Positions 6,501-64,000 of a stretch of DNA of 64,000 nt are shown one piece after another. Positions within the stretch are counted from its first letter, which is position 1. Each line of letters opens with the position of its first letter. Under the pieces are notes generated by a model, which was not told the DNA's origin, did not search any database, and saw only the letters and a program-made list of their open reading frames with translations. Made by a program: the position numbers and the translations under genes. The DNA is from Anolis carolinensis (lineage: Eukaryota), in contig NC_085842.1 of NCBI RefSeq assembly GCF_035594765.1, positions 23,040,782 through 23,104,781 on the forward strand, given 5' to 3'.

Positions 6501-6628
6501 CAGGCATCCTCAAGGCCAAGCTCTTTGGGCCTCCAACTCCCAGAATTCTTGACCACTGAACAAGTTGGCTAGGGCTTCTGGAAGCTGGCGGCCCAAACAA
6601 CTGAGGGGGCACAGTTTGAGGATGTCTG
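6501..6628. mobile_element. Short hAT-type MITE
   Basis: Terminal inverted repeats CAGGCATCCTCAA / TTGAGGATGTCTG and an internal hairpin. Confidence 0.6.
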
Positions 6629-7145
6629 TCAGGAAGCTGCAGCCATTTCTTGGAAGAGTACTCAAATTGTTTGTGGTCAACAATAGCAATAGTCCAAACA
6701 GAGTTCAAGGCACAAAGGATTGTCCAAATGTTCGTTTTGAAAGTTAATAACATAAAGTCCAAGTTCCAAAGTACAAGGGTTACTGGCTGAAACATTCCAT
6801 ACACGAAGATTGCTTCCAGCCATGAGCTGTTGCAAATGCCAAGCTTTTATGCTACCTTTGCAAAAGTCCTACAACTGGGCAGTTTTCTTCTGGGCCAACC
6901 TCTTTGACCTGTGCAGCTGAATTGAGTCCACTCTGGGTTGTAACCAGGCAGGGAGTGTTAAATCCTGCTCTTCCTGCTGAAGAACCTCATTTTGCTCACA
7001 CTCCGCTGATTCTGAAGGGTCTGGCTCCTGCTCAGCCATAGCTCTCTCAGAAATATCAGGCTGCTCATTCACCATGGGCTCAGACTCTGCTGTTGGGAAG
7101 CAACCATCCTCCACATCATCCTTGTCTTGCCCCATGGTCCTGACA
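6627..7145 (-). mobile_element. Solo-LTR-like element A (519 bp) with an acidic ORF ending HRSKRLA
   Basis: Perfect 8-bp terminal inverted repeat TGTCAGGA...TCCTGACA; ORF 7144-6869; no TSD visible. Confidence 0.65.
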
Positions 7146-43900: not shown

Positions 43901-44280
43901 TCTTGCAAAACATTGCACAGTCGAACTGCCAGCTCCAATATGTTACCATTCTGTTTCTATATCTCAGAATGTGGTCAAGTCTCCTTCTCTGGAGGTTTTT
44001 AAATAAAAGCTGGATGGCTGACTGGTGGGAGTGCTTTGATTGTACATTCTAGCATTGCATCTGGTTGGACTGAAGAGATCCAGATTCCTATTATATTGGT
44101 AGTTGCATTTGATCAGTGTTTTGATGGCTCAGCCAAAAAAGCTGCTTGCAAAATAGTGCCAGTGGTTACATAGATCTACCCATCTCCTCAGTTTGTGGAG
44201 GGAGAGCTGCTTCACCCTCCTGAGTTTGCTTCGTTGATTTCATTAGTGTTGTAGTTGGGCCAAGGGGCAGTAATGGTTCT

Positions 44281-44817
44281 ATGGGTGAAACAGCTAGAAG
44301 GAGAAAAAGGGCTAATAGAGAGCAGGTACTTGATGAAGAACAACAAGTAAAGCGGTTCCAGGAAATGCTTATGGCTCCTTCAGAGAATGAGACGTTTTAT
44401 GGGTTTTCTAGTGATGAGGAGTCCATGCTAGATGATGATTTTGCAGAGAGTAGAGGAACTAAAAGGTCTACTCGAGAGCAGGAGTCAGATGAGGAAAGAG
44501 AAAGGAAAAAGATCTGGGATATACTCACTGCTCCCACGAATGAGGAGACTTTTGAGGGATTCTCCGGGAATGATGGGTCTGGGAGTGAGATGGAGAATGC
44601 TGACTGGACTCAAGTTAATGTGGATGATGAGCCAGCCCATGGGGCTGCATCAGGGGATTGGCAAGCCTCTCATACTTCTGGGACATGGGGAGATCTAAGT
44701 CTTGAACAGAGATGGAGGGGCTGGAGGGATGGGAGGCAAGGTCCACTAACAAGATCAAGATCAGCTGTGATTGATGAGGAAAGGGCGGAGGTCTCATCAG
44801 CATCGGACTCCGACTAG
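44281..44817 (+). CDS. LTR-encoded acidic 178-aa ORF with two tandem FxGF (IBM/TIM-like) repeats
   Basis: Open from 44248. Repeats KRANREQVLDEEQQVKRFQEMLMAPSENETFYGFS and KRSTREQESDEERERKKIWDILTAPTNEETFEGFS are conserved at the protein level while the DNA has diverged. Confidence 0.6.
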   Translation: MGETARRRKRANREQVLDEEQQVKRFQEMLMAPSENETFYGFSSDEESMLDDDFAESRGTKRSTREQESDEERERKKIWDILTAPTNEETFEGFSGNDGSGSEMENADWTQVNVDDEPAHGAASGDWQASHTSGTWGDLSLEQRWRGWRDGRQGPLTRSRSAVIDEERAEVSSASDSD

Positions 44818-45022
44818 TAAGTTAAAAGTAGAGTTTGGAAAACTATTGCCTTGCAGAAGGCAAGGTATCGTTTTGGGGACATTGCTTTGTTGCTGCCTGT
44901 TCTCCTTGGGTCCTGGCTGTGCAGCTTCCTGATAATCCGGTTTGAGTCCTGCTTCAGTGTTCCTGGCTTCTGACTCCAGCTCTTGACAACAACGTTCCAG
45001 TTCGACGTTTCCAGTTCAGCGT

Positions 45023-45885
45023 TGTCACGCTCAAGGCAGCGGAGCACCAAGAACCATACACGGAGGCCAATAAACTATCTAATATCTTTATTAAGGAAAT
45101 ATATAAGAATAATAAAAACAAGTAGAAAATATAGTCCAGAGTCAGACCTATCAAAGGAGGTCAAATGTAGTCCAGAAATAGTTTGTCCAATAAATGATAT
45201 TAGAGTCCAAAGATAAAATCCAATAAACCGAAACACACACTATTGCCAAGCAATAGTGTGGGGAATTGTCCAGAGTCTTTCAAGGTCCAAGGTAAATTCA
45301 CAAGAAGGCAGGAATCAAAGCTTGAAACTGAGAACAAGGTCCGTGGCTAGGAACGAGGCAAGGCAAATCTTGAATACTTGAATAAACAAGGCAAGGAAAC
45401 TGGATTGCGGACTTAGCGAAGTCCACACAAGGCTGGAAACACGAACTCACTCCTGAAGCTGCTCTGTTGTCTCCGCACGGAGCCAACCGTGTCAGGCACC
45501 TTTAACTGGGTCTCGTTTTCCCGCCAAACAGGTGTCCAGCGTTCTCTTTCCCTAGAGAACAGGGAACGAACCCCAACTTTCCAGATGTGAGACTCCCTGG
45601 ATTTCCCAGGGGAAACATGGCTAATCAGCGTCTTGTTTGCCTGCAATTCTGACACTCCTGCGAATTCGCTCTTTCACTCCCCTGTCAGCAGCAAAGGATT
45701 GTCTCCTAGCGAAGGGAGGTGAGAGCTGTTCAAGGTCGGTTTTAATTGGTTCTTGGGCAAGAACATCAACATCAGGCATCTGGAAGGATTCCGGCTGTTG
45801 TTGATCCGGAGAAAACCCCATGTTTTCATCCTCATCTGCCACAGTGACACTAGGAGCGGGACTACAAGGCCCATGAGGCATCACA
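45023..45885 (-). mobile_element. Solo LTR C (863 bp, Gypsy-like) nested inside element B
   Basis: TGTGATGCC...GCGTGACA on the minus strand, TSD AGCGT (45018-45022 / 45886-45890), AATAAA near the 3' end; ORF 45884-45621 ending RRSVRIAGKQDAD. Confidence 0.9.
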
Positions 45886-48189
45886 AGCGTTTGCCTTGGC
45901 GTTTCTGATCCATTGTTTCCAGTTCGGTGTTTGCTTTGGCATTTCTGCTCTAGCATTTCCACTTCGGCGTTTGCCTTGGCGTTTCTGCTTCAGCGCTTCC
46001 AGATTGGCGTTTGCCTTGGCATTTCTGCTCCAGCGTTTCCAGTTCGGCATTAGCTTTGGCGTCCCTGCTTTGGTGTCCCTGCTTTGGCGTCCCTGCTTTG
46101 GCGCTCTTACTTTGGCTTTCCTGGCTTCTGAACCCGGTCTGGCTCCTGACCTTCGTCTGTGCTTGCTCCTGGCTTGGCGTCTCCGTTTTTCTCCCTTTGG
46201 TCTTTGGAACTCGGCCTGGCTTCGACTACGATTCTGCTTGCTGCCTTTCGGAGCATTTTGCTCTTTTCCAGCCCTTTGCACCACAGCATTGAGTGGCGTC
46301 GGTTCTGGTAATGTTTCTGTTACATTTGCTGTGGATTATCAAGCCAGATAATCCGGATTATTCTTTTGTTCTTGCTTTTGACTCCTTTTGAACTAAGACG
46401 TTTACTTTTGAAGAGAAACACTGCATTTAAGTGTTTCTGAGTTTAAAATATCTTTTAATAAATATTTAAGAACTTTCCTTTATGTGTGTGGCTTTTTAAG
46501 AGGCGGCTGTGTCACGACAATTAGTAATTGGATACCCTGTTTTTTCAGATATATGAGAGTGGTCTCCATGCAAATGCCTCTGCTGAGTTCTTTCTTTCCT
46601 TCATTTACAGGATATCAGAAGCTTCTTACAGGGGTAAGTTAATTTCATCTCCTCCTCCCACTAAAACTCAAATTTCCACATGAAGTACATGACCCTCAAA
46701 AGCAAAAGCGTGCTGCAGGAGTCTGTGTTTGGCTGGGGTTCACAGGAAGAATTGGACTTGATGATCAATGAGACCCCTTCAGCTCTATGATTCTGTGGAG
46801 CATTTACACTCTAGAATTAATGCCATTTGACAACAACTTTGATTTGTTACCCACCTCTCTTCATGATTCGAGGCAGTACACAATCCAGCCAAAGCACACC
46901 ACCATGAATAAATGCCATAAAATGTGTATATTAAAACACACCATCACAAAACAATATATATTGAAATACACAATGCAAGGATTAAAATGCAGTAGCAATG
47001 GAATATAAATTGAAAGTCCATTCATTCTACAATGAAGATGCATCATCTGATATTTTTATTTCTCCTCCAGGCATAAGAATAAGGAGAAATCCAAGACTTC
47101 TGCAGCCTTTCCTCCTGCCCTGAAGTGGAAGATCTGGGACGTCTGTGATATCAATCCATTTTTGGAGGCCGTCATGAAGCAATTTAGAGGTAAGGGAGAT
47201 TGTCTGCAAGGAATTTCAGTGAGACTTGACCTTGGTCTGGAAAGGGTAACATTCCATGGCATTTCAAAAATTAGGGCCACAGAACAGCAAATTGGAGTGC
47301 TAATGTTTCCTTTCAAATGTGAAACAAAATTGTATCAATTTGCTCAATTGTTTTTTTTTCTTTTCCATTTTATTTCTAGTGAGGAATAACATTTCAGAGT
47401 GAAGCAAAATAAAATGAAAATGTCGAGGGCCCTGATCAGCCTTACTCTGGTCCATGTAACCTGCAAATGTGGAGGACTAGTGGTAGTCTGAACAAACTGT
47501 GTGGCTTGAGTTCTAATATACACATTTTATCCTATTTATTCATGGTGGTGTGCTTTGGCTGGATTGTGTCCTGCTTCGAGCCATGAGGCCAAGAGTTGGG
47601 CCTAGATTTTGATTCAAAGGTGATTATGATCATTGCACAGCCAGCCCTCCACATTCGCAGGGGTTAAGAATGTGGGATCTCAGGGGAAAAAGGGAGCGGG
47701 AATGTGGAGGACTCAGAGATTCCTAGAGAGAACATGTTAATCAATGAGACATAACTCTCTGCTGGTGGCCACACAACGTCTCTTGGGTACAGGATCTCAG
47801 CTTCCCTGTGTTGTTTTCTCCTCATTTTCTGAGAGTCACCATGTTGTGCTAAGACTCACTCTCACCTTTCTCTCTCCAGCCTCTCTGGAATCTGGACTTC
47901 AGCAGCAAAAAGGTAAATAAATGAACACAGACAACAGTAAAAAAGCATTTTATTTCTATTGACTGTGAATGAGTTGATTGGAAACTAGAATGCCTTAATA
48001 CGATAATATCAAATCAGACATCCAGATCTTTTTCCCCAAACGAATGAGAACTATGTTATGCAACACAGGTTAAGAGAAAATAGCTTTAAACTGGAAGTTC
48101 TTCTTTGAGATTGTATGAAGTCTGATTTCTGGCTTCTCGGAGTTGTGATTAAATAGGTAGATTTTTAAAGCTCTGATCATTGGCATGTA

Positions 48190-48512
48190 CAGTAGAGTCT
48201 CACTTATCCAACACTCGCTTATCCAACGTTCTGGATTATCCAATGCATTTTTGTGGTCAATGTTTTCAATACATCATGAAATGTTGGTGCTAAATTCGTA
48301 AATACAGTAATTACTACATAGCATTACTGCATATTGAATTACTTTTTCTGCCAAATTTGTTGTATAACATGATGTTTTGGTGCTTAATTTGTAAAATCAT
48401 AACCTAATTTGATATTTAATAGGCTTTTCCTTAATCCCTCCTTATTATCCAACATATTCGCTTATCCAACGTTCTGCTGGGCCGTTTATGTTGGATAAGT
48501 GAGACTCTACTG
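48190..48512. mobile_element. Tc1/mariner-superfamily MITE
   Basis: Same TIRs, TA TSD; empty site tggcatgtat in paralogs. Confidence 0.9.
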
Positions 48513-50704
48513 TATCTGGATTCTGTATAGAATCCCCAAAAGAGTGTCAAAACAACCTGAACACTGACTATTTATGGCTCCTTGCTTCAAGCCTACTTTA
48601 GTGGCACACATTATGCATTCCTTAAAAAAGAATTGGTCTCCAACTCAATATGAAATATGTGGGACATTAATTTTGTTATAAAACCAGATGATTAGTCTGC
48701 CTTCAAATTCTTTCTGACTTGGCAAACCAAGACGATCCTATCACAGGGTTTTCTGGGGCTGAAAGTGTGTCATTGGCACAAGTTTACCCAGTGGGTTTCC
48801 ATCACTGAGGGGGAATTGAACCCTGGTCTCCATCGTCATAGTCCCACCAACCCATGCTCAGGTGTTGCTTGTAAGTAGCATAATGTAGAATCATCTAGAT
48901 TTGAGATGGAGAGGGAATATTTCTTTGTTACTTTTTAGAATCAGATAGAAGCTGATCTTCTATCAGTTTACACTTTTATTCATTCATTCATTCATTCATT
49001 CTCTCTTCACCCTTCATTTGTTTCCATCACCAACAGCACATGTGACTCTAGATCCAAGCACAGCCCATCCTCAACTCATCTGCTCTGAAGATCTCAGACG
49101 TGTGACCTTTGGAGAGAAAGAGCAAGATCTTCCTGACAATCCTGAGAGATTCAACGAGTATTTTTTCGTGTTGGGTCAGGAGGGATTCAATGGAGGCAGG
49201 CATTTCTGGGAAGTCCTTCTGGGGAGTGAGGGAGAATGGTCTGTGGGAGTTGCCAGAAAGTCTGTGCAGAGAAAGGGCTGCATTCCCTATGTCCCTCATG
49301 CTGGGATCTGGCAAGTGGAAAAGTGTTGGAGTGAATACTGGTTCTTCTCCAACAACGGTGTGGCCTCCCCTCTGAATCTGAGCAAGGAATCGAAGAGGGT
49401 CCGTGTGACACTGAACTACGAAGGGGGTCGGGTGGCCTTTTACGATGCAGACTCGGCAGCCCTGATGTATGAATACCCTCCAGCCTCTTTCTCAGGAGAG
49501 ACCCTCCTCCCGTTCTTTTCTATGTTCTCAGAAGGCCACCTGGAACTCTCTCCGTAAGGATGGAGAGCAATGTCCAAAGACTCACACCATCTGAGACACA
49601 AGAGGAGCTTTATCTCTGGAGATCTGGAGCTGTGGATTCTTTTTGTTCTCTTTGTGAAACCTCTCTGCTCTCTCTTTACACCTTTGTGAAAACCTGGTTT
49701 GGAGGCTGGAGTGTGAATGAAGAAGCCATTCCTCATGGCAGTGCTCAGTGCATGGATCAACTGGGGATTTCTTCCATTTGGAAAGCCTAGCTACAACAAC
49801 AACAACAAAGAGGGAATAAAAGATGCAAATTGATTTTTAGTCAAGAATTCCATTTATTGGAATTTAGTAGTAAGTGGACAGCCTATCTATTTGCCCCTCC
49901 CTTTCCTGGCCTTTCCCAGAGATGTAGGCAGGCCTTGGCTGTGTAGTTAAAGTTAAACAAAACGGGTGATAAAATGCATCCATGCTTCACCCTCTTGCCA
50001 AATTGAAACAATTCCTTTTCTCTGTCTTCGTCCTTCGGCCCTTTGTCCTGAGTAAAAATTACACATTAGGAAAATCCAATGCCGTGTTGCAACCATTTTT
50101 TATGTACAATCCATAGCTTTTCGTGATCTGTACAATCAAGGGCTAAATGATAAAGCACAGATTGATTTTCCTTGATATGTTTCTGCACTCCATTATCCAA
50201 AGTATGTTTCAGTATGATTCCTTGTGTCTCCTTGTTTTCTGAACGCAGCACGGACATCTTGCATTTTTATTCTGTAGAAAGTAAAATACTTGTTTTGGTA
50301 ACATTTGAGTATCACTTGTTTCATCAAGGAATGGTTCTATTTGTCCAAAATCTTGGGTCTCCCAGTGTGCCTGAGCCCACTGAAAACATGCAAGGATGAA
50401 GGCAAGATCAGAAATGGTTTTATGCAGCAGTGGTCAACGTGGATACTACAGGACACAGCGTAATCCCACATCTGACGTGCCTCCCAGTCACAAGTGTGGG
50501 TATTACAAAGTGGTCATTACAAAGAGTGGGCATGTGCTGTGATTCGTGCAGATTACGATCCTTAATCTCATTGGTCCAAAAGTCCATTCATTTATGGTTT
50601 GTAATTGGTGCATAGTGTAGAATAAACTGGCATTGGTTAAACTTGAAGCTGTGGGTTTGAGAATGGAGTGCCGTTTGGGTCTTGGGACAATGGGTGTTGG
50701 AGTG

Positions 50705-51057
50705 TGTGATGTCTCAGGGACCTTTGGCCCATGACCCCGCAGCCATCATAGATCAAACTGAAGAGGATTTGGGCTTTTTCCCATCTCAGCAAGATTCTGT
50801 GCCATTCCAGATGTCCCCTGTTGACATTTTCGTGCCAGAGCCAATTAGGGACGCCCTTGAAACAGAGCCTGGTTCCCTGGAAAGTTTGGTGTTTGATAGG
50901 AAGGCTTTTCTCAAAACACATCGCTCCCATAAGTAGTTTCTAAGGCGAAGCGCGAGATTAGCGGAGAGAGACGATTGTGACTAAACCGTTTCCCTTGGGA
51001 AGTTTCGGGGAGGCAGGCATCTGATACGATGTTGAAACAGCTTCGTTCTCTGGGAAG
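50705..51057 (+). mobile_element. Truncated LTR D, related to C and E
   Basis: Starts TGTGATGTCTCAGGG; ORF 50706-50984 with one internal TAG, ending FLRRSARLAERDDCD; cut off by a Penelope-like insertion. Confidence 0.7.
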
Positions 51058-51770
51058 ATAAATATCAGGATTCACAGCAAAAAGAACTTACATGTCCTTG
51101 AAGGATCCTCTGCAGGGAGGCTTTTTGGATCCACAAATTGAAGACCTTAACCCCACAAGGCCTAAACGATAGGCTAGATCTCACCTGCTTCTTATAATGG
51201 GATAAAAAAATACTTAAGTCTTTACAGAACTACTGCTGAATGCTCGCAACCTGAGGTAGAACACTACATGTAAGGATCCTCCAAGGACATGTAAGTTCTT
51301 TTTGCTGTGAATCCTGATATTTATATACTATATTAGATATTATTGGGGTGTATTATACATGTCTATTTTTAGTATGGTTTGTATTATTTCTAGTATGGTT
51401 TGTATTATTTTGAATCAATTTACATTTAATTCTATGAAAAGAAATAAGACAGCAGAGCAGCAAACAGAGGGAACTCCAGGATTACCTGAAGAAGGTCTAC
51501 CTGAAGAAGGTCACCGAAACTGGATGCATACCCGGGAGACCAGTCGTTACTATTGACATGGAACTTTGTTGCTATTGATATGGAACTTTGATTTACTATT
51601 GACATGGAACTTTGATTTACTTTGAATGATCGAATTTGAAGAAGAGTACTACAAACCTTGAGAACACTATCAAGATTGTATTTGTTAAAATTGGACATTG
51701 AAATATGTACTTATCTGTACAGTTGGAATATATAAATTGATATTACAGTCATAATATATGTGATTATATC
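51058..51770 (+). mobile_element. Penelope-like element (Neptune-type GIY-YIG end) with 5' inversion and hammerhead-like motif
   Basis: REAFWIHKLKTLTPQGLNDRLDLTCFL* at ~51114-51197; 52-bp inverted repeat 51058-51109 / 51273-51324; CTGAAGA..GAAA ctgg..ccag TC at 51501-51545. Confidence 0.7.
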
Positions 51771-53173
51771 ACTTGAGAAAATATAGAACTATAACTTACT
51801 TTAAAGTACAATATATACCATTCTTTTCCTTTTTTCCTTTTTACATGTGGATCAGCAGCCAAATACAGATTGAGCATCCCAGATCTGAAATTCCACAATC
51901 TGAAATAATAGAAAGTTGTCCATATGGGCAGCTGAGAGAGTGACACCTTTGCTTTGCAATGGAACAGATGGTTTTCTAAATGCTAATCACACACACACAC
52001 CCAGTGCTAGGAATCATGGGCATGGAAAGGCACACATTGAGTATCTCTTATCAGGAAATACGAAATACTCAAAAATTCAAAACTCAAAATTGTCCACAAG
52101 GGTGACTAAGATAGCGACATCTTTGCTTTTGTAGGGTTCAATGTACACCAACTTTGTTTCAGGAACATTATTTAATATACTACATATAAAATATCTTCAG
52201 GCTATGCGTATAAGGTGTATATGGAACATAAATGAATTATGTGTTTAGACTTGGGTCCCATCTCCAAAGTATCTCATAACGTATTTTAACTGCTATGGAT
52301 CAATGCTATGGGATCATGGGAGCTGTAGTTTAGCTTCTATAAAAGAGTGTTGGTAGCACACCAAACTACAAATTCCAGAACTCTGTAGCATTGAACTGTG
52401 GCAATTAAAGTGTGTCAAACTGCACTAATTCTACAGTGTAGATGCAGCCTTGCTGAGTGCCAATTTTGGCTTCTTTTCAATGCTTCAAAAAACATGGCTT
52501 TACATTCAATCTTTATTCCACATGTGCAGTTTGAAAGTACAAGCCCCCATCTACACTAACCATTTAATACAGTTCAAAGCTAGTTTCAATCTGTGACAGC
52601 TAGAAAACAAACACCTATGGAAAAAAGCCGGAAATGTGCAGCAAACCCACTTTATTCAATACTGCTTTGAAACTGCATTAAATGGTCGGTGTAGATGGGA
52701 CCTTTGATTCCTGTTTTCATGAAGAATACATTCCTCGATGGAGAACGAGTACAAAAAATCATGGATAATTCAGGAAACGATTAAAAGAAACAATTTCCGG
52801 TCCCAGCATACCACGGATATCGTTCCTGCAGTGAGGCGGGTTTGACTGTTTTTGAGACTTTAAAATCTGCTTCAACCTGGCATGAAATAGTTAAAAACCT
52901 TTAAAATGTGTTGAAATGAATATGGCTTTTCTTTGTTCAGTTATGTTTGTTGAGAATGTATAGGTTGCAACCAGCCTTTTGAATGTATTGTATCTGGAAA
53001 TGCACCAGTAGCCAAAGAAGTAAGGGGGTTACATGTTTAGAGAACTTGAGTAGTGCCCAGAAAGACAGAGAAAGGGGAAGGGTCTCATGTACACGTTCCC
53101 AAAGGCTGAGGCATCTGGAGAGCTCAGAGGTTGCAGCGCCAGAGGTTGGGCAGAGGCGGAGTCACCAGCTGCT

Positions 53174-53205
53174 TTCCTGGAAGAGAAAGGCTGAGAAACG
53201 AAAGT
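53174..53205 (+). promoter_or_regulatory. GAS plus ISRE upstream of TRIM copy 4
   Basis: TTCCTGGAA (53174-53182) and GAAACGAAAGT (53195-53205), 50 nt before the ATG. Confidence 0.6.
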
Positions 53206-55439
53206 AAGGCTGTTAACTTTGTCTGGTCTTTGGGGTGGAGAAGCATTGGCAGCCATGGCCTCTGGAGACCCTGTGAAGAAGCTCTGCGAAGAACTGGCCT
53301 GTCCCATCTGCTTGGAGTATTTCAAGGAGCCTGTGATCCTCTCCTGTGGGCACAATTTCTGCCAATCCTGCCTGGATCAATACTGGGAGGAGAAAGAAGC
53401 CTCCTGCCCACAATGCAGGGAGAAAGTGCAGGGAGGGGACATCAGGCCAAACAGGCAGCTGGCCAATGTTGTGGAGCTAGTCAAGGAATTGGGGAGCCAG
53501 AAGGCGGAAGAGAAGGGGAGAGTCTGCCAGAGGCACCAGGAGCCCCTGAAGCTCTTCTGCAAGGACCACGAAGCCCCCATCTGTCTGGTGTGCGACAGAT
53601 CGAAGGAGCATGAAAACCACAAAGTGATCCCTCTGGATGAAGCATCAAAGGAGTACAAGGTAGGAGGAGGTAAAATCAGGACCCCTAACAAGGTGTTGTG
53701 GTGCATCCCCACCCCACAATACAGGTCTGTGGTTGGTGGTTCCATATTTCTCCAATCCATAGCATTTAGCCCTGGCAGTTAAAGTGTGTTAACTCTACAG
53801 ACATGGTCCGATTGAAGGCTGAAGCATGAGGTTTTTAGACAAATGGATCTAATTTACATATGTTTTAATTGTTATAATGTATTTTAATGATGTATTTTAA
53901 TAGTTTTAATTGATTATACGTACTGTTTTTGTTTTATTATTATGTTCTTGGCATTAAATATTGCCAACTGTTGTAAGCCAACCTGAGTCGTCCCCCCCCC
54001 CCCCCCCCCGGTGAGAAGGGCGGGTATAAATGCTGGAAATAAATGGCCCATGAGGTCTCTTCCAACTCTACTATTCTATGATTCTATGAAATAAATAAAT
54101 ACAGTGTAGCTGCACCATGAGACTTGAGCAGCAGACAAAATAAGGTCCCTGACCATTAGCAAGAACTTCCTGATGTCAATAACTGTTTCATGATTGAATG
54201 TGCTGAATCTAAGCATATTGGAGTCTCCTTATATTTTAGAAAATTTTAGGTTAAATTAAACTGACATGGGAAGCAGGAATAAGAACGCTTTGGTGTAGAA
54301 TATATTGGATTTTATTGCACAAACCTACTAGTCCACTGCACTTCGGTTCTCACTGACAGCAGAGCCATACGGAATTGAGGACGTTAATATCACACTTTTC
54401 TTCCTTGGCTTAGTTCTGCCAATTCAGCAATTCATCAGTGCAGTTTTGCATACCCTGGAAACCCATACTTCAGCCGATCCTTATTATTTCAGTGCAATTT
54501 GAGGAATTGATTTGTGTTTTAGAGCAGTTTTATTTCATGTTTTAAACTTTGAAAAATAACACAGGAAAATATAACTGTGAAATATTGCATTAGCAAGGGA
54601 GAGTGGAAGGAGTGAAGGGGAAGAGAATCCCAGCTCCTGATGTGATTTTGCTCCCATCTTGCTGGCTCAGAAGGGGACCCATTGCATCAAGGGAAGTGAC
54701 AGGACCGTTGTGGGATTGTGAACTGTAGGTTGGTTTTCACTGACAATAACATGGGATGGGATAATCATGGAGAGGAGGCAAGACGGCAGCAGGATGAACA
54801 TGGCATCATGCAATAGCGATGCAGTAGTTTGCCTGTCTCCTGTGATAGCATCCATCATGTACATCTCCAAAATAAAATTGATTAGTACAGGAATAAAACC
54901 TGGGATTTTCAGGTACTGTACCTTTTATGTCTAGAGAAGTTTTTTTGAGTAAAGAAAATTGTGGAAGCAGTATTAGCAAAAGAACAGAGGTCTGCCAGTA
55001 GAGGTCAACATTGTCCAAAGCTCCCATAAAATTCAATAAATGTGGTATGGTTGACGGCATGATCTTGGAAACCATTCTAAACCTTGAAGAAAAGCAGTGA
55101 CCAAGAACTTTATTTTCATCTTTAGGATCAGATTTGGAATTTTCTGGAGACTCTGAAGAAGGAAAGAGACATTCTGGCCCACAAAGCAGACGCAGCACGG
55201 GAAAGCCAGGATTTGCTCGTAAGTGGCATTGCTACTGAAAAACGAGAATGTATTATAGCCTTGAATGTGAGTCTGAATAAACTGAATTCATTTTGTCAAA
55301 ACTATCCCACATTATAAGAGACCTGATAGCCTACAGAAAATATTGCCCTAAACCTATTCAAGTGGCTAGCCCTTGTAGGTCTTCATAAAGCACTTTCACC
55401 ACTAGATATTGACATTTTCTTTCTGAAGAGATGTAAACC

Positions 55440-56299
55440 TGTGATGACTCATGGGCCTTGTAGTCCTGTTCCTAGTACTATTGCGACAGACGAAGAGGAA
55501 AACATGGGATTTTTGCCGGTTCAGCCAGAGCCGGAGCCTCCTCAGTCTCCTCACCTGCAGGATGTTGATGTTTGTCCTCAAGAATCCAGCCAAACAAGCC
55601 TTGGGCAGAATTCTCCCCCGTTTTCCCGAAAGGACAATTATAATAGAGATAGAGGGGCGAGGGAGGCTAATCGCCGGTCTCTCAGAATCGCAGCCAGACA
55701 ATTAGCTGATTAAGCCTGTTTCCCTTGGGAAATTCTAAGGAGTCATGCATCTGGACACAGTTTGGGTTTCACTTCTTGTTCTCCAGGGAAAGTGTTCCTT
55801 GGCGGGAAAACAAGATCCTATATAGGTGTTTTGCCGCAAGGGGAACCTTGCGGAGTCAATTCGTCAGCTCGAGGAGTGAGATCGTGTGTGACTCCAGTTC
55901 CTTGTTTCCCGGATCAAGTTCAAGCCTGCCTTGTTTCGCGTTTGCCACGGACCTTGTTCTTGCTTCTTGTTTTGCCTCGTATCAAGTCTTGTTTGCCAAG
56001 AATCCAGTTTGTTCTCTAGCCTTGTTGTCAAGCTTCAATGGACTAAAAGACCTTGTCATCTCCCCACACTATTGCTTGGCAAAGTGTGTGTTTCGGTTAA
56101 TGGATTATAACTTTGGACTCTAATATCTCATATTGGACATTATTTTCCTGGACTATATTTGACCTTTCCTGAAAGGTCTACTTCTGAAGTTTATTCTTCA
56201 CTTGTTTTTATTGACTTTATATATTCCTAAAATAAAGATATTAGATAGAATCTGGCCTCTGCGCATGGTTATTGGTGTTCTGTAGCCTGGGTCCTGACA
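55440..56299 (+). mobile_element. Solo LTR E (860 bp, Gypsy-like) in intron 2 of copy 4
   Basis: TGTGATGAC...CCTGACA, TSD AAACC (55435-55439 / 56300-56304), TATATA at ~55819, AATAAA at 56232; ORF 55441-55713 ending RRSLRIAARQLAD. Confidence 0.92.
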
Positions 56300-56759
56300 A
56301 AACCCCACTCCAAAAGAATGCGGAGAATTCATTCCAAAAACCCTCTCTCTGCCTCTCTCTCCTGTTTCTCTTTTCCAATATTCTAGGAGAAAACCCAAAG
56401 GGAGAAGAAAAAGGCTGTGGCTGCATTCAGACACATGCATCAGTTTCTAGAAGAACAAGAGAGGAATCTGCTGGCAAAAATGGAAGAGGTGGAGAAGGAG
56501 ATTTCAGTCAAAGGGGAGGAACATCTGGCCAGACTCTCTGAAGAACTCTCCTCTCTCTCGAAACTCATCCAAGAGATGGAGGAGAAGCATCAGCAGCCGG
56601 CAAGTGAACTCCTCCAGGTAAGGCCCATCTTGTTCCCATGGGTGGCTGAGACAGTGACACTTCAGTTTTCTCATGGTTCTATGTACACAAACGGTTGTAT
56701 GACATTAATTTTATGCTGTGTTTAGAAGGCAAATAAGAAACAAATGAATTTGAGACTTA

Positions 56760-57880
56760 CTTGGGGTCCATCTCTAAAAGATCAGATATTTATTTCATTA
56801 TTTACTGTCTTGATTCTAATGTTTTTTTTAATACTGGTAACCAGATTTTGTTTATTTTCATGGTTTCCTCCTTTCTGTTGAAATTGTCCACATCCTTGTG
56901 GATTTCAGTGGCCTCTCTGTCTGACATTATAGATGTTGGAGTGGTCCAGCATTTCTGTGTTCTCAAATGATGTGTGCCGTCCGCCAGACAATAAAAAAAA
57001 CTATAAAGCTGAAACGTGCCGTCCTTTATCCGGGCGAACTGCAAATCCCTATAAGCTGTCCTAAAAATATTGAACGACTGAGTCTGGAAAACTTCAAAAA
57101 AAAAGGATGTTTATTCATACAAAGTTGTAAACTTGCCACAGATCTTAAAGTTACAGAAAATGAAACACATTTCTATAGGTTTTAGTTACAGAATTATCCC
57201 TGGTTCCAGAAGGCAAAGGTGATTATAAAACCACTACACCCTAATCACGCTGTCTATAATAGAAGGAGAAACTCTTTCCTTCCCTATCTTTACAGCAAAG
57301 ATTAGTTCTAGAAGCGACGGAATAACCTTGCTCCTCTAATTAGATTTTCTATTCCAGATCAGTATAATTCAATACTTATCTAATTTGGATAGGCTTAGAT
57401 TGGCCTGGTTTTGAGGATGATTTGTCCCAGTTAGCTTTGCACAGCTGCAGCACATTGGAAGACTATAGCCAAAATGAGGCTCCAAAATGGAGACTAGACC
57501 CTGGTTAAAAAAGGGCGGTCCTAAGATGTTGTACTCTTTGACCAATCATTGCAAAGAAGACTGCAGCCAGCTCTTGCAGACTCCAAGCCACCTTTCCTGG
57601 GCTTTTGCAGCCAGAGGCTGAAACAAAATGTAAAGGAGGGAAAACAAACAAACGACCAATAGGTAAGGCAAACCATCGTCCTGGGGGACGGAACAGATGT
57701 GCTGTGTCCAGGTTGGTTCATCAAGTGCTCTGCTATGGCTGACTTCTCTGGTTGAGTTAGTCTGCAGTGCCTTTCATGTCTGGATAGGGACCATCGAATG
57801 CAGCAATGTCCAGACACGAATCAAACAACATGAAAGGTACTGCAGACTAATTCAACCAGAGAAGTCAGTTATAGCAGATT
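56760..57880 (-). mobile_element. Penelope GIY-YIG fragment with an inverted piece, interrupted by an LTR
   Basis: HERHCRLTQPEKSAIAEHLMNQPGHS ... REATEIHKDVDNFNRKEETMKINKIWLPVL on minus; inverted copy at ~57800-57880. Confidence 0.8.
56973..57695 (-). mobile_element. Solo LTR with a 4-bp TSD (ERV-like), 723 bp
   Basis: TIR TGT(G/T)CCGTCC, TSD GATG (56969-56972 / 57696-57699), minus-strand AATAAA at ~57110. Confidence 0.75.
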
Positions 57881-58194
57881 CCTAATATATTGGGGCTTGC
57901 ATTTGACCAGTGTTTTGATGGCTCGGCAAAAAGCTGCTTGCAAAATAGTGCCAGTGGTTACATAGATCTACTTGTCTCCTCCTTAGTTTGTGGAGGGAGG
58001 GCTGCTTTGCCTGCCTGGGTTTGTCAGTGATTTGTTTTAGTTGGATGCCCTGTTTTTTTCAGCTGTATGAGAATGATCTCTGCTGAGTTCTTTCTTCCTT
58101 TCCTTCATTTACAGGATACCAGAAGCTTCTTACAGGGGTAAGTTAATTTCCTCTCCTCCTCCCACTAAAGCTCAGATTTGCACATGAAATACAT

Positions 58195-58934
58195 TCTCAC
58201 ACTCCAAGTCAGGAACCCTTTGACTGTAAACAGCACACCAGGTTGGTAAAACCAGCAAGCAGGTTATTGTAGAATATATAAAGGCAAAGCAATAGAAAAT
58301 AGTAGAAAAGAATCAATCCAAAAGTATCCAAGATTAACTATAGAGTTTCAACAGAAAATCAAATCCACAGTTTCATAACAACTCCATGAAGCAGGGCACA
58401 AGAAACCAGGAATCAATACAGCAAAGTCCCATAGGCAAACTTGAACTTGATAATATTTTGATATATGAAGCACTTGAAAGCTAGACCGACATGGTTCAGA
58501 GACGTTGACTCAACTGAAAACCGAAAGTACCATAAACCCTTTCCAAAATCCATGACTGAGAGAAAAAAAACAATTCTTTTTTCCTTTCCCACTACATAAT
58601 TGGCTGTTATCTCTCTTCTGTTGTAAACGAGCGAAGCGTCTGAGATGCTGAATGTTTTGCCTGTACTTATTAAAACTCTGCCTTCTAGCAAAGGTTTCAG
58701 TATCATTGCCACCTGGGAAAACAATCTCAGAAGCGCTTTCAGGCTGTTATTCTCAGGTCTGTTATTATTCTGTTATTCTCAGGTCTCTCATTTGAACTTA
58801 GCTCCAGCCCGAGCCCATCAAAAGGAACATCATCAATCTGAACATCCTGAACATCATTCCCACCATGAACATCGGACACAGGCTGAACAGGAACATTAGG
58901 CACAATCACAGGCTGAGCAGGCTGACATACAACA
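58195..58934 (-). mobile_element. Solo LTR F (740 bp) in intron 4 of copy 4
   Basis: TSD TACAT (58190-58194 / 58935-58939); starts TGTTGTATG on minus; acidic ORF, frameshifted at a small tandem duplication near 58745-58790, continues ETFARRQSFNKYRQNIQHLRRFARLQQK. Confidence 0.8.
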
Positions 58935-62600: not shown

Positions 62601-64000
62601 CAGGGCCGGCCGGAGATATTTTTTGATGTAAAGCGGGGGCGCTGAAAAGCGCCCCCGCCACCGGCGCCCTGGCCCCGCCCAGCGTGCCCTGGCCCCGCCT
62701 CCCACGCTGCGTGGGAGGCGGGGCCAGCTCTGACGCCGCTCCCCCCCCCCCCGCCCAGCGTGCCTTGGCCCTGCCTCCCACGCAACGTGGGAGGCGGGGC
62801 CAGGGCACGCTGGGCGGGGGGGCGGCGTCAGAGCTGGCCCCGCCTCCCACGTTACCCCCGCTCGCCCGTCTGGCCTTGTGTAGCAGGCCAGACGGGCGAG
62901 CGGGGGTAACGTGGGAGGCGGGGCCAGCTCTGACGCCGCTCCCCCCCCCCCCCGCCCAGCGTGCCTTGGCCCTGCCTCCCACGCAACGTGGGAGGCGGGG
63001 CCAGGGCACGCTGGGCGGGGGGGGCGGCGTCAGAGCTGGCCCCGCCTCCCACGTTACCCCCGCTCGCCCGTCTGGCCTTGTGTAGCAGGCCAGACGGGCG
63101 AGCGGGGGTAACGTGGGAGGCGGGGCCAGCTCTGACGCCGCTCCCCCCCCCCCCGCCCAGCGTGCCTTGGCCCTGCCTCCCACGCAACGTGGGAGGCGGG
63201 GCCAGGGCACGCTGGGCGGGGGGGGCGGCGTCAGAGCTGGCCCCGCCTCCCACGTTACCCCCGCTCGCCCGTCTGGCCTTGTGTAGCAGGCCAGACGGGC
63301 GAGCGGGGGTAACGTGGGAGGCGGGGCCAGCTCTGACGCCGCTCCCCCCCCCCCCCGCCCAGCGTGCCTTGGCCCTGCCTCCCACGCAACGTGGGAGGCG
63401 GGGCCAGGGCACGCTGGGCGGGGGGGGCGGCGTCAGAGCTGGCCCCGCCTCCCACGTTACCCCCGCTCGCCCGTCTGGCCTTGTGTAGCAGGCCAGACGG
63501 GCGAGCGGGGGTAACGTGGGAGGCGGGGCCAGCTCTGACGCCGCTCCCCCCCCCCCCCGCCCAGCGTGCCTTGGCCCTGCCTCCCACGCAACGTGGGAGG
63601 CGGGGCCAGGGCACGCTGGGCGGGGGGGCGGCGTCAGAGCTGGCCCCGCCTCCCACGTTACCCCCGCTCGCCCGTCTGGCCTTGTGTAGCAGGCCAGACG
63701 GGCGAGCGGGGGTAACGTGGGAGGCGGGGCCAGCTCTGACGCCGCTCCCCCCCCCCCCCGCCCAGCGTGCCTTGGCCCTGCCTCCCACGCAACGTGGGAG
63801 GCGGGGCCAGGGCACGCTGGGCGGGGGGGGCGGCGTCAGAGCTGGCCCCGCCTCCCACGTTACCCCCGCTCGCCCGACTGGCCTTGTGTAGCAGGCCAGA
63901 CGGGCGAGCGGGGGTAACGTGGGAGGCGGGGCCAGCTCTGACGCCGCTCCCCCCCCCCCGCCCAGCGTGCCTTGGCCCTGCCTCCCACGCAACGTGGGAG
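62601..64000. repeat. GC-rich ~200-202-bp palindromic tandem array (at least 6 units), probably internal to a hAT element starting at 62601
   Basis: Homology to the paralogous 3' UTR stops at ...ctcataga|CAGGGCCGGC; unit start gggccagctc recurs at 62721, 62921, 63123 and onward; each unit is two near-perfect hairpins. Confidence 0.9.

Follow-up and report, generated by a model that had tools for sequence, protein, structure and literature searches.

The self-priming arrangement and the clade names of the Tf1/Sushi group of retrotransposons are described in PMC6317226, and some members of the clade have no chromodomain (PMC3601003). In plants, pol of the CRM group A elements runs into the long terminal repeat (LTR) at the 3' end and carries a targeting motif instead of the chromodomain, and the open reading frame (ORF) also extends into the LTR in some beet Bingo families (PMC3059260, PMC3605345, PMC6317226). 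Here we analyzed a stretch of 64,000 nucleotides from Anolis carolinensis (contig NC_085842.1; hereafter the window) with LTRs that we call A to G (Table 1). The acidic ORFs of A-F are almost certainly C-terminal integrase tails, with C and F likely so by analogy; in two-LTR copies pol crosses the polypurine tract (PPT) and continues for 82-190 codons into U3. The source elements are Tf1/Sushi-group chromoviral Gypsy retrotransposons. Read-through into an LTR is a known arrangement; long, selected U3 tails with two types of host-like motif appear to be new.

A preliminary description of the window had proposed that these ORFs share one phase, and counting open codons from LTR nucleotides 1, 2 and 3 bore this out. 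From nucleotide 2 the frame stays open for 91 codons in A, 189 in B, 76 in C, 87 in D, 90 in E and 64 in F, compared with 7-12 codons from nucleotide 1 and 0-24 from nucleotide 3. Chance was rejected as the cause of the shared phase. Shuffles of each ORF's own bases remained open with P = 0 to 0.026; 8.8% of random window starts are open for at least 64 codons. As had also been noticed, F has no in-frame ATG and A, B, C, D and E have one near the LTR start. Some details changed. All of the LTRs had been placed within 44247..58934, and A lies outside this range. C, D and E had been taken as related, which at the DNA level is borne out for D and E (68% identity); the likeness of C to E is limited to a 47-nt match.

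A search of the genome with E yielded six two-LTR pairs of ~6.2 kb (L031-L036). Each of the six has a frame that stays open over 318-1282 codons ahead of the 3' LTR and over 82-90 codons within it, with no stop across the PPT, which is what the preliminary description had expected of a pol/integrase frame running into U3; the same continuity was seen in the B clade and in one decayed A copy (see below). The U3 copy at the 3' end continues pol, and the 5' and solo LTR copies hold the same frame without its upstream part. In the E pol frame Pfam gives the order protease (PR), reverse transcriptase (RT), RNase H (RH), integrase (IN), SH3, chromodomain, behind a gag of the DUF4939/Ty3 type, and the chromodomain matches of the E/D type (PF00385) have E-values of 1.4e-9, 1.2e-7 and 3.1e-9. 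Gag followed by a PR-RT-RH-IN pol with a GPY/F-SH3 module is present in L031, L035, L137, L140 and L141. Genome-wide, the junction pattern occurs 4533 times versus 13 times for the reversed control pattern. In a sample consisting of the first 30 junctions on contig C1, the chromodomain ran in frame into a tail 67-110 codons long in 30/30, and 27/30 were open over the entire upstream 1.5 kb. The E primer-binding site pairs with LTR nucleotides 411-428, downstream of the tail stop (which ends at nucleotide 274), so the tail would lie wholly in U3, given that this self-priming site marks the putative start of R. Self-priming complements of 10-11 nt were present in L031/E, L141, L137, L138 and L140; window D gave no match when the E site was used as query.

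The acidic ORFs of lizard solo LTRs are thus best regarded as integrase tails and not as host genes. One gene model has absorbed such a tail: P0121, an Anolis carolinensis protein named as a cation-transporting ATPase, has an E-type LTR tail at its end. This is probably a gene-model artefact; otherwise it would represent exonisation of a solo LTR.

The B LTR sits behind the same polypurine tract, as revealed by pattern search, and B copies are joined to integrase in L077 and L139. Retrieval of the internal DNA behind the B LTR gave 25 loci. In L109, L110, L114 and L115, SH3, ~40 residues, the PPT and the LTR tail follow one another in one frame. Read-through was not clean in L111 (stop after SH3) or L124 (frame shifted at the tract); L117 continues into unrelated DNA and L116 belongs to the E type, while no motif match came from L112, L113 or L131. 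Fourteen of the 25 loci belong to a young sister family of B, whose LTR pairs are 96.8-99.4% identical and whose self-priming site is 11 nt long; 11 of these 14 have a complete tail. Of the sister elements, L137 and L140 have an intact pol frame of 1212 amino acids (aa), in which the Pfam Chromo model found no match at E-values up to 0.1, and the Pfam chromodomain was likewise absent from L139 and from the Anolis carolinensis proteins P0002 and P0003, which have the B-sister architecture. L137, L140 and L141 contain no further sense ORF of at least 200 aa and therefore no env. There are 205 exact B-sister junctions in the genome. Three of them, at G000:C1:26753580-26764016, are spaced by exactly 5205 bp and form a tandem array sharing LTRs.

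In a quick tree of 37 rows (SH-aLRT support only, without bootstrap; no row dropped; no CRM sequence included), the lizard elements fall into a single clade (SH-aLRT 100), in which the chromodomain-bearing Podarcis protein P0005 and the B sister family group together (SH-aLRT 99). The latter grouping indicates that loss of the chromodomain in the B clade is derived; on this tree, the B clade is nested among lizard elements with a chromodomain and is a Tf1/Sushi member by descent, though it has no chromodomain itself. The tree also bears on the shared phase. At the E/D junction (...GGATAG|TGTGA), phase 1 hits TAG just before the LTR and phase 3 starts with TGA, so the other two frames are blocked. 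Because the lizard elements form one clade and the proteins of fish relatives have, at GGG[ST]V, what looks like the same junction, the nucleotide-2 phase would most simply have been inherited from a common ancestor.

The remaining LTRs are less complete. Two pattern searches for the internal part of A gave no result; a later protein search led to a decayed copy, L193, in which an SH3 remnant, a decayed chromodomain, the PPT and the A tail share a frame interrupted by a single stop. At its start the LTR of L193 lacks one base relative to window A, so the exact A phase is unreadable from this copy. A separate protein search with the A tail, aimed at longer proteins that contain it, found none. 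Further lizard LTR families, L268 and L279, have a chromodomain, a PPT and a tail with a terminal basic motif. Window C is cut at about nucleotide 355 by another insertion, and an in-frame stop precedes its basic motif; other genomic C copies are ~890 nt long with the frame open as far as the basic motif, and they have TG...CA ends and a 5-bp target-site duplication (TSD). In the window copy of F, the basic motif falls in another frame because the tail frame is broken. The pol frame runs into the tail in B, in D/E and in the one decayed A copy, and by analogy C and F are likely to have the same origin. Some points count against extending the pol-tail assignment to every family: A depends on the single decayed copy L193, the internal part of F was not found in repeated searches (covering 20 loci plus 16 of the ~150 stretches listed), and C and F are placed by analogy. 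G was considered as a counter-example and rejected. It is a BEL/Pao element, and in L309 the upstream pol, with DUF5641, stops ~30 codons before the PPT, so it serves as a negative control. The preliminary description had noted that G is open for about 58 codons in the same frame; this is correct for the minus strand (57-58 codons) but reflects no phase preference, because all three minus-strand phases, and only those, are open (49, 57 and 62 codons).

Two types of motif recur in the tails. In the chromodomain-bearing families the tail ends in a basic motif, RRS.R[IL], which is kept in 32/33 E/D-type junction copies. Window C, D and E have arginine at positions 1, 2 and 5 with L or I next; window A has H at position 1 (HRSKRL), and the A copy L206 has RR. 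A terminal basic motif also ends the tails of lizard families L268 (C at the first position), L270, L271 and L279 and that of Podarcis P0005. The commonest form, RRSARIAA, matches yeast Dot5 RRSARIAT at 7 of 8 residues; in Dot5 three arginines are required for binding to the acidic patch, and the HMGN consensus is RRSARLSA (PMC13347269). A frog (Leptobrachium) chromovirus protein, P0088, has RRSRRL after its chromodomain, so the motif may not be limited to lizards. A complex prediction with H2A, H2B and a 40-aa tail scored 0.02 against a mark of 0.34 and carries no weight either way.

The second type is seen in tails of the B clade. TND-interacting motifs consist of a short helix, an acidic Ser/Thr-rich linker and FxGF, the last being essential for binding to LEDGF/HRP2 (PMC9987994), and the consensus of the LEDGF-binding motif is [E/D]xExFxGF (PMC10538959). 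An acidic FxGF motif is present in 30/32 B-clade LTRs examined. The full core occurs in motif 1 of window B, in motif 2 of L139, L077 and L043, and in P0003; motif 2 of window B (N at the first position), L137, L140 and P0002 are near-misses. For a host counterpart we took the DNA upstream of the two zf-4CXXC_R1 genes of the genome. One upstream region carries LADVFNAPSDDEDFFGF plus a second motif, from which the gene appears to be CDCA7L-like. Scanned with this host motif in six frames, the window gave the two B motifs with scores of 43 and 42 and nothing else at or above 25. P0003 is identical to it at 11/17 positions, and 0/2000 shuffles reached the observed scores for B, L137, P0002 and P0003. 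At the level of sequence, the pattern of putative helix and acidic linker in B is in register with the host motif at the same spacing. DNA identity with the host motif is only 27-29/51 nt, so capture from the host and convergence are indistinguishable. In a separate Podarcis branch (P0007, P0131), acidic FxGF motifs lie upstream of the apparent junction. Among general searches, Pfam gave nothing above cut-off for the six tails, PDB sequence searches with the tails gave chance matches only, and the ESM Atlas gave SH3 clusters or no usable match. The genome also contains an intron-less LEDGF/HRP2-family domain with one stop codon (L183, G000:C2:143718346), probably a processed pseudogene, and metagenome matches to the LEDGF domain are single exons.

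These observations can be joined in one model. Pol crosses the PPT, and integrase would thereby gain a U3-encoded C-terminal tail. In the chromodomain-bearing families the tail would supply an HMGN-like arginine anchor (RRS.R[IL]) that is predicted to engage the acidic patch of H2A-H2B alongside the chromodomain. The B clade would have dropped its chromodomain and acquired helix-acidic-FxGF motifs, one or two in number, whose predicted partner is the integrase-binding domain of LEDGF/HRP2; such binding would favor H3K36-methylated gene bodies and would reach the same host factor that lentiviruses reach through a different surface. In each case the tail motifs would steer the insertion-site choice of new copies. 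We judge it somewhat better than an even bet that the tails, through mimicry of host motifs, anchor the integration complex on chromatin, and the whole explanation, pol tails plus a likely chromatin tether by host-motif mimicry, is the one we consider probable with modest confidence. The specific version for the B clade is more tentative and falls just short of an even chance: tethering to LEDGF through an LTR-encoded CDCA7L-type motif after the chromodomain was dropped, sister families using an HMGN-type anchor, U3 acting as a swappable targeting cassette, and FxGF gained at least twice in lizards.

Several results weigh against this model. The basic motif is present in only 3/109 chromodomain-positive relatives, all three of them lizard (11 further relatives without a chromodomain pattern match were left unscored and are outside the 109), so it is dispensable for transposition in general. 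The B sister family has D instead of E at the third consensus position of the LEDGF-binding motif. P0131 keeps a Pfam chromodomain (E-value 3.5e-11) beside FxGF, which means that FxGF does not always replace the chromodomain, and P0007 matches the host motif no better than shuffles (1579/2000). No insertion bias was detected when flank composition was compared between B-sister, E and fixed-position sites (20 of each); strand skew, a weak proxy for genic location, showed a trend only, with medians of 0.038, 0.023 and 0.018 (p 0.15-0.23). Nor were best matches of B enriched on small contigs (2/40).

The distribution of C differs. Its best matches lie on small contigs C10-C15 in 18/40 cases, and a number of the rest are close to large-contig ends, which suggests family-specific targeting or retention; the small-contig share elsewhere is 2/44 rows for E and 1/40 for G.

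There are three other possibilities for what the tails are. The first accepts them as a selected part of Pol and assigns the motifs to nuclear import, nucleic-acid binding, particle assembly, kinase control, or recruitment of LEDGF or other TND proteins for transcription or repair after integration. Selection on the frame is silent on the purpose of the tail, the tails often have basic clusters and SP/TP sites, the RRS.R motifs could be nuclear-localisation or nucleic-acid-binding signals, and the flanks revealed no bias. Even so, a generic acidic or basic signal would not account for so specific a register match to the host CDCA7L-like motif, and the LEDGF-type motif, duplicated in B, arose in the lineage that lost the chromodomain. 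We therefore regard this possibility as unlikely, though a serious contender.

A second possibility is that the tail is a tolerated run-on of pol, open only through conservation of the U3 promoter, or trimmed off by the protease. Fish relatives have only ~20 residues beyond a comparable GGG[ST]V junction (seen in proteins only), and constraint on the tail is weaker than on integrase: across 11 E/D-type copies dN/dS is 0.40 in the tail and 0.15 in the integrase region, figures that are descriptive because the pairs are not independent. Against a mere run-on, synonymous divergence in the tail far exceeds replacement (dS 0.72, dN 0.29). All four tail indels in these E/D-type copies keep the frame (6, 12, 15 and 36 nt), whereas just past the stop non-triplet indels dominate, only 4/29 in the following 300 nt being multiples of three. 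The terminal motifs also persist across LTR families without DNA similarity. By these sequence measures the E/D-type tail is under purifying selection, and a run-on is improbable.

The third possibility, favored in part by the in-frame ATG near the LTR start in A, B, C, D and E and kept as a branch in the preliminary description, is an accessory gene distinct from pol and comparable to nef, sag or bel, with its own ATG or spliced RNA; it is very improbable and unneeded, as the U3 frame is continuous with pol without an upstream stop, F has no in-frame ATG, and the self-priming site puts the RNA start downstream of the ORF, so that a 5' LTR or solo LTR promoter would not transcribe it. Among the joints listed for contigs of four RNA runs covering the element, none was a GT-AG joint into the tail frame, which is uninformative.

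Table 1. LTRs of the window and features within them (positions counted from the first nucleotide of the window)
Feature	Position	Strand	Remarks
Solo LTR A, old	6627-7145	-	91-codon tail with HRSKRL; TSD inexact
Solo LTR B, whole span	44247-46519	+	TSD ATTAG at 44242-44246 and 46520-46524; interrupted by nested D
Solo LTR B, 5' part (U3 and start of R/U5)	44247..45022	+	chromodomain-less Tf1/Sushi lineage
B integrase tail frame, 189 codons	44248..44817	+	continuous with SH3 domain in L110/L139
LEDGF-binding-type motif 1 in B, FQEMLMAPSENETFYGF	44356..44406	+	best six-frame window match to putative host CDCA7L-like motif; fits [E/D]xExFxGF
LEDGF-binding-type motif 2 in B, IWDILTAPTNEETFEGF	44512..44562	+	second-best match to putative host CDCA7L-like motif
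Solo LTR D, inside B	45023..45885	-	TSD AGCGT; 87-codon tail from nucleotide 2; RRSVRI at 45645-45662
Solo LTR B, 3' part	45891..46519	+	CA end, then TSD
LTR C, truncated	50705..51059	+	in-frame stop at codon 77; RRSARL at 50943-50960
Solo LTR E, chromodomain-bearing chromovirus	55440..56299	+	TSD AAACC; two-LTR copies L031-L036
E integrase tail frame, 90 codons	55441..55713	+	acidic, then RRSLRI at 55672-55689
Self-priming site in E, complement of primer-binding site; putative R start	55850..55859	+	10-nt complement at LTR nucleotide 411
Solo LTR G, BEL/Pao	56973..57695	-	4-bp TSD; control, no pol tail
Solo LTR F, old	58195..58934	-	TSD; tail frame broken; RRFARL in another frame

TSDs are exact in B, D, E and F (5 bp) and in G (4 bp). 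B, D and E combine TG...CA ends with their exact TSD, and F has a TSD but an altered end. The insertion that truncates C occupies 51057-51700 and bears inverted repeats; it may resemble a Penelope-type end. Several of the solo LTRs lie in a tandem cluster of four or five TRIM genes at 9-15 kb spacing (~18550-62420), recognized by eye from RING, B-box, coiled-coil and B30.2-like exons; B, D, E, F and G are intronic. Directly after the last exon of a TRIM gene, a GC-rich tandem array of ~201-bp units with internal inverted repeats of ~140 bp spans 62740-63960.

The choice of insertion sites by vertebrate LTR retrotransposons is little understood, and the tails name LEDGF/HRP2 and the nucleosome acidic patch as candidate host partners that can be tested with short peptides. 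If the predicted binding is real, a retrotransposon has come convergently to the tether of lentiviruses along another path, and the result would hint at a role for the CR motif, which plant centromeric elements encode in U3 and which is so far unexplained. The literature searched, mostly abstracts with few subscription journals, contained no description of such U3 tails in vertebrate chromoviruses and no report of a retrotransposon integrase with a motif of the LEDGF-binding or HMGN-like type. An Anolis chromovirus paper (Piskurek et al. 2009) may already mention the read-through.

Compared with Sushi-ichi and Amn-ichi (Tf1/Sushi, V-clade), the lizard elements share a DUF4939/Ty3 capsid Gag, the PR-RT-RH-IN-SH3 order, self-priming and a 5-bp TSD. 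The E/D type also shares the chromodomain of the group, which the B clade does not have. The lizard pol has defined motifs in its U3 extension of 82-190 codons; in fish relatives it ends ~20 residues past the junction. With plant CRM group A, the B clade has its architecture in common, that is, pol running into the LTR and no chromodomain. CRM group A, however, is a plant clade with tRNA-Met priming; the lizard elements self-prime, and their closest relatives are vertebrate and metagenome elements. The CRM papers name no partner of the CR motif (PMC3059260, PMC3605345). The lizard tails, by contrast, match named host motifs.

The lizard tails may also resemble the CR motif itself. The likeness to HMGN, tardigrade Dsup and yeast Dot5 consists of arginines 1, 2 and 5 of RRSxR[LI]; unlike that of HMGN, the lizard motif sits at the integrase end beside a chromodomain, without a following proline/lysine segment. 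The likeness to the motifs of CDCA7L (JPO2), IWS1 and KMT2A consists of the pattern of putative helix, acidic linker and FxGF with the spacing of the host motif. In the TND review literature, the treatment of viral mimicry is limited to lentiviral integrases, which act through a structured site and not an unstructured motif (PMC9987994, PMC10854676). Unlike the CDCA7L, IWS1 and KMT2A motifs, the lizard motif is carried by the integrase of a retrotransposon.

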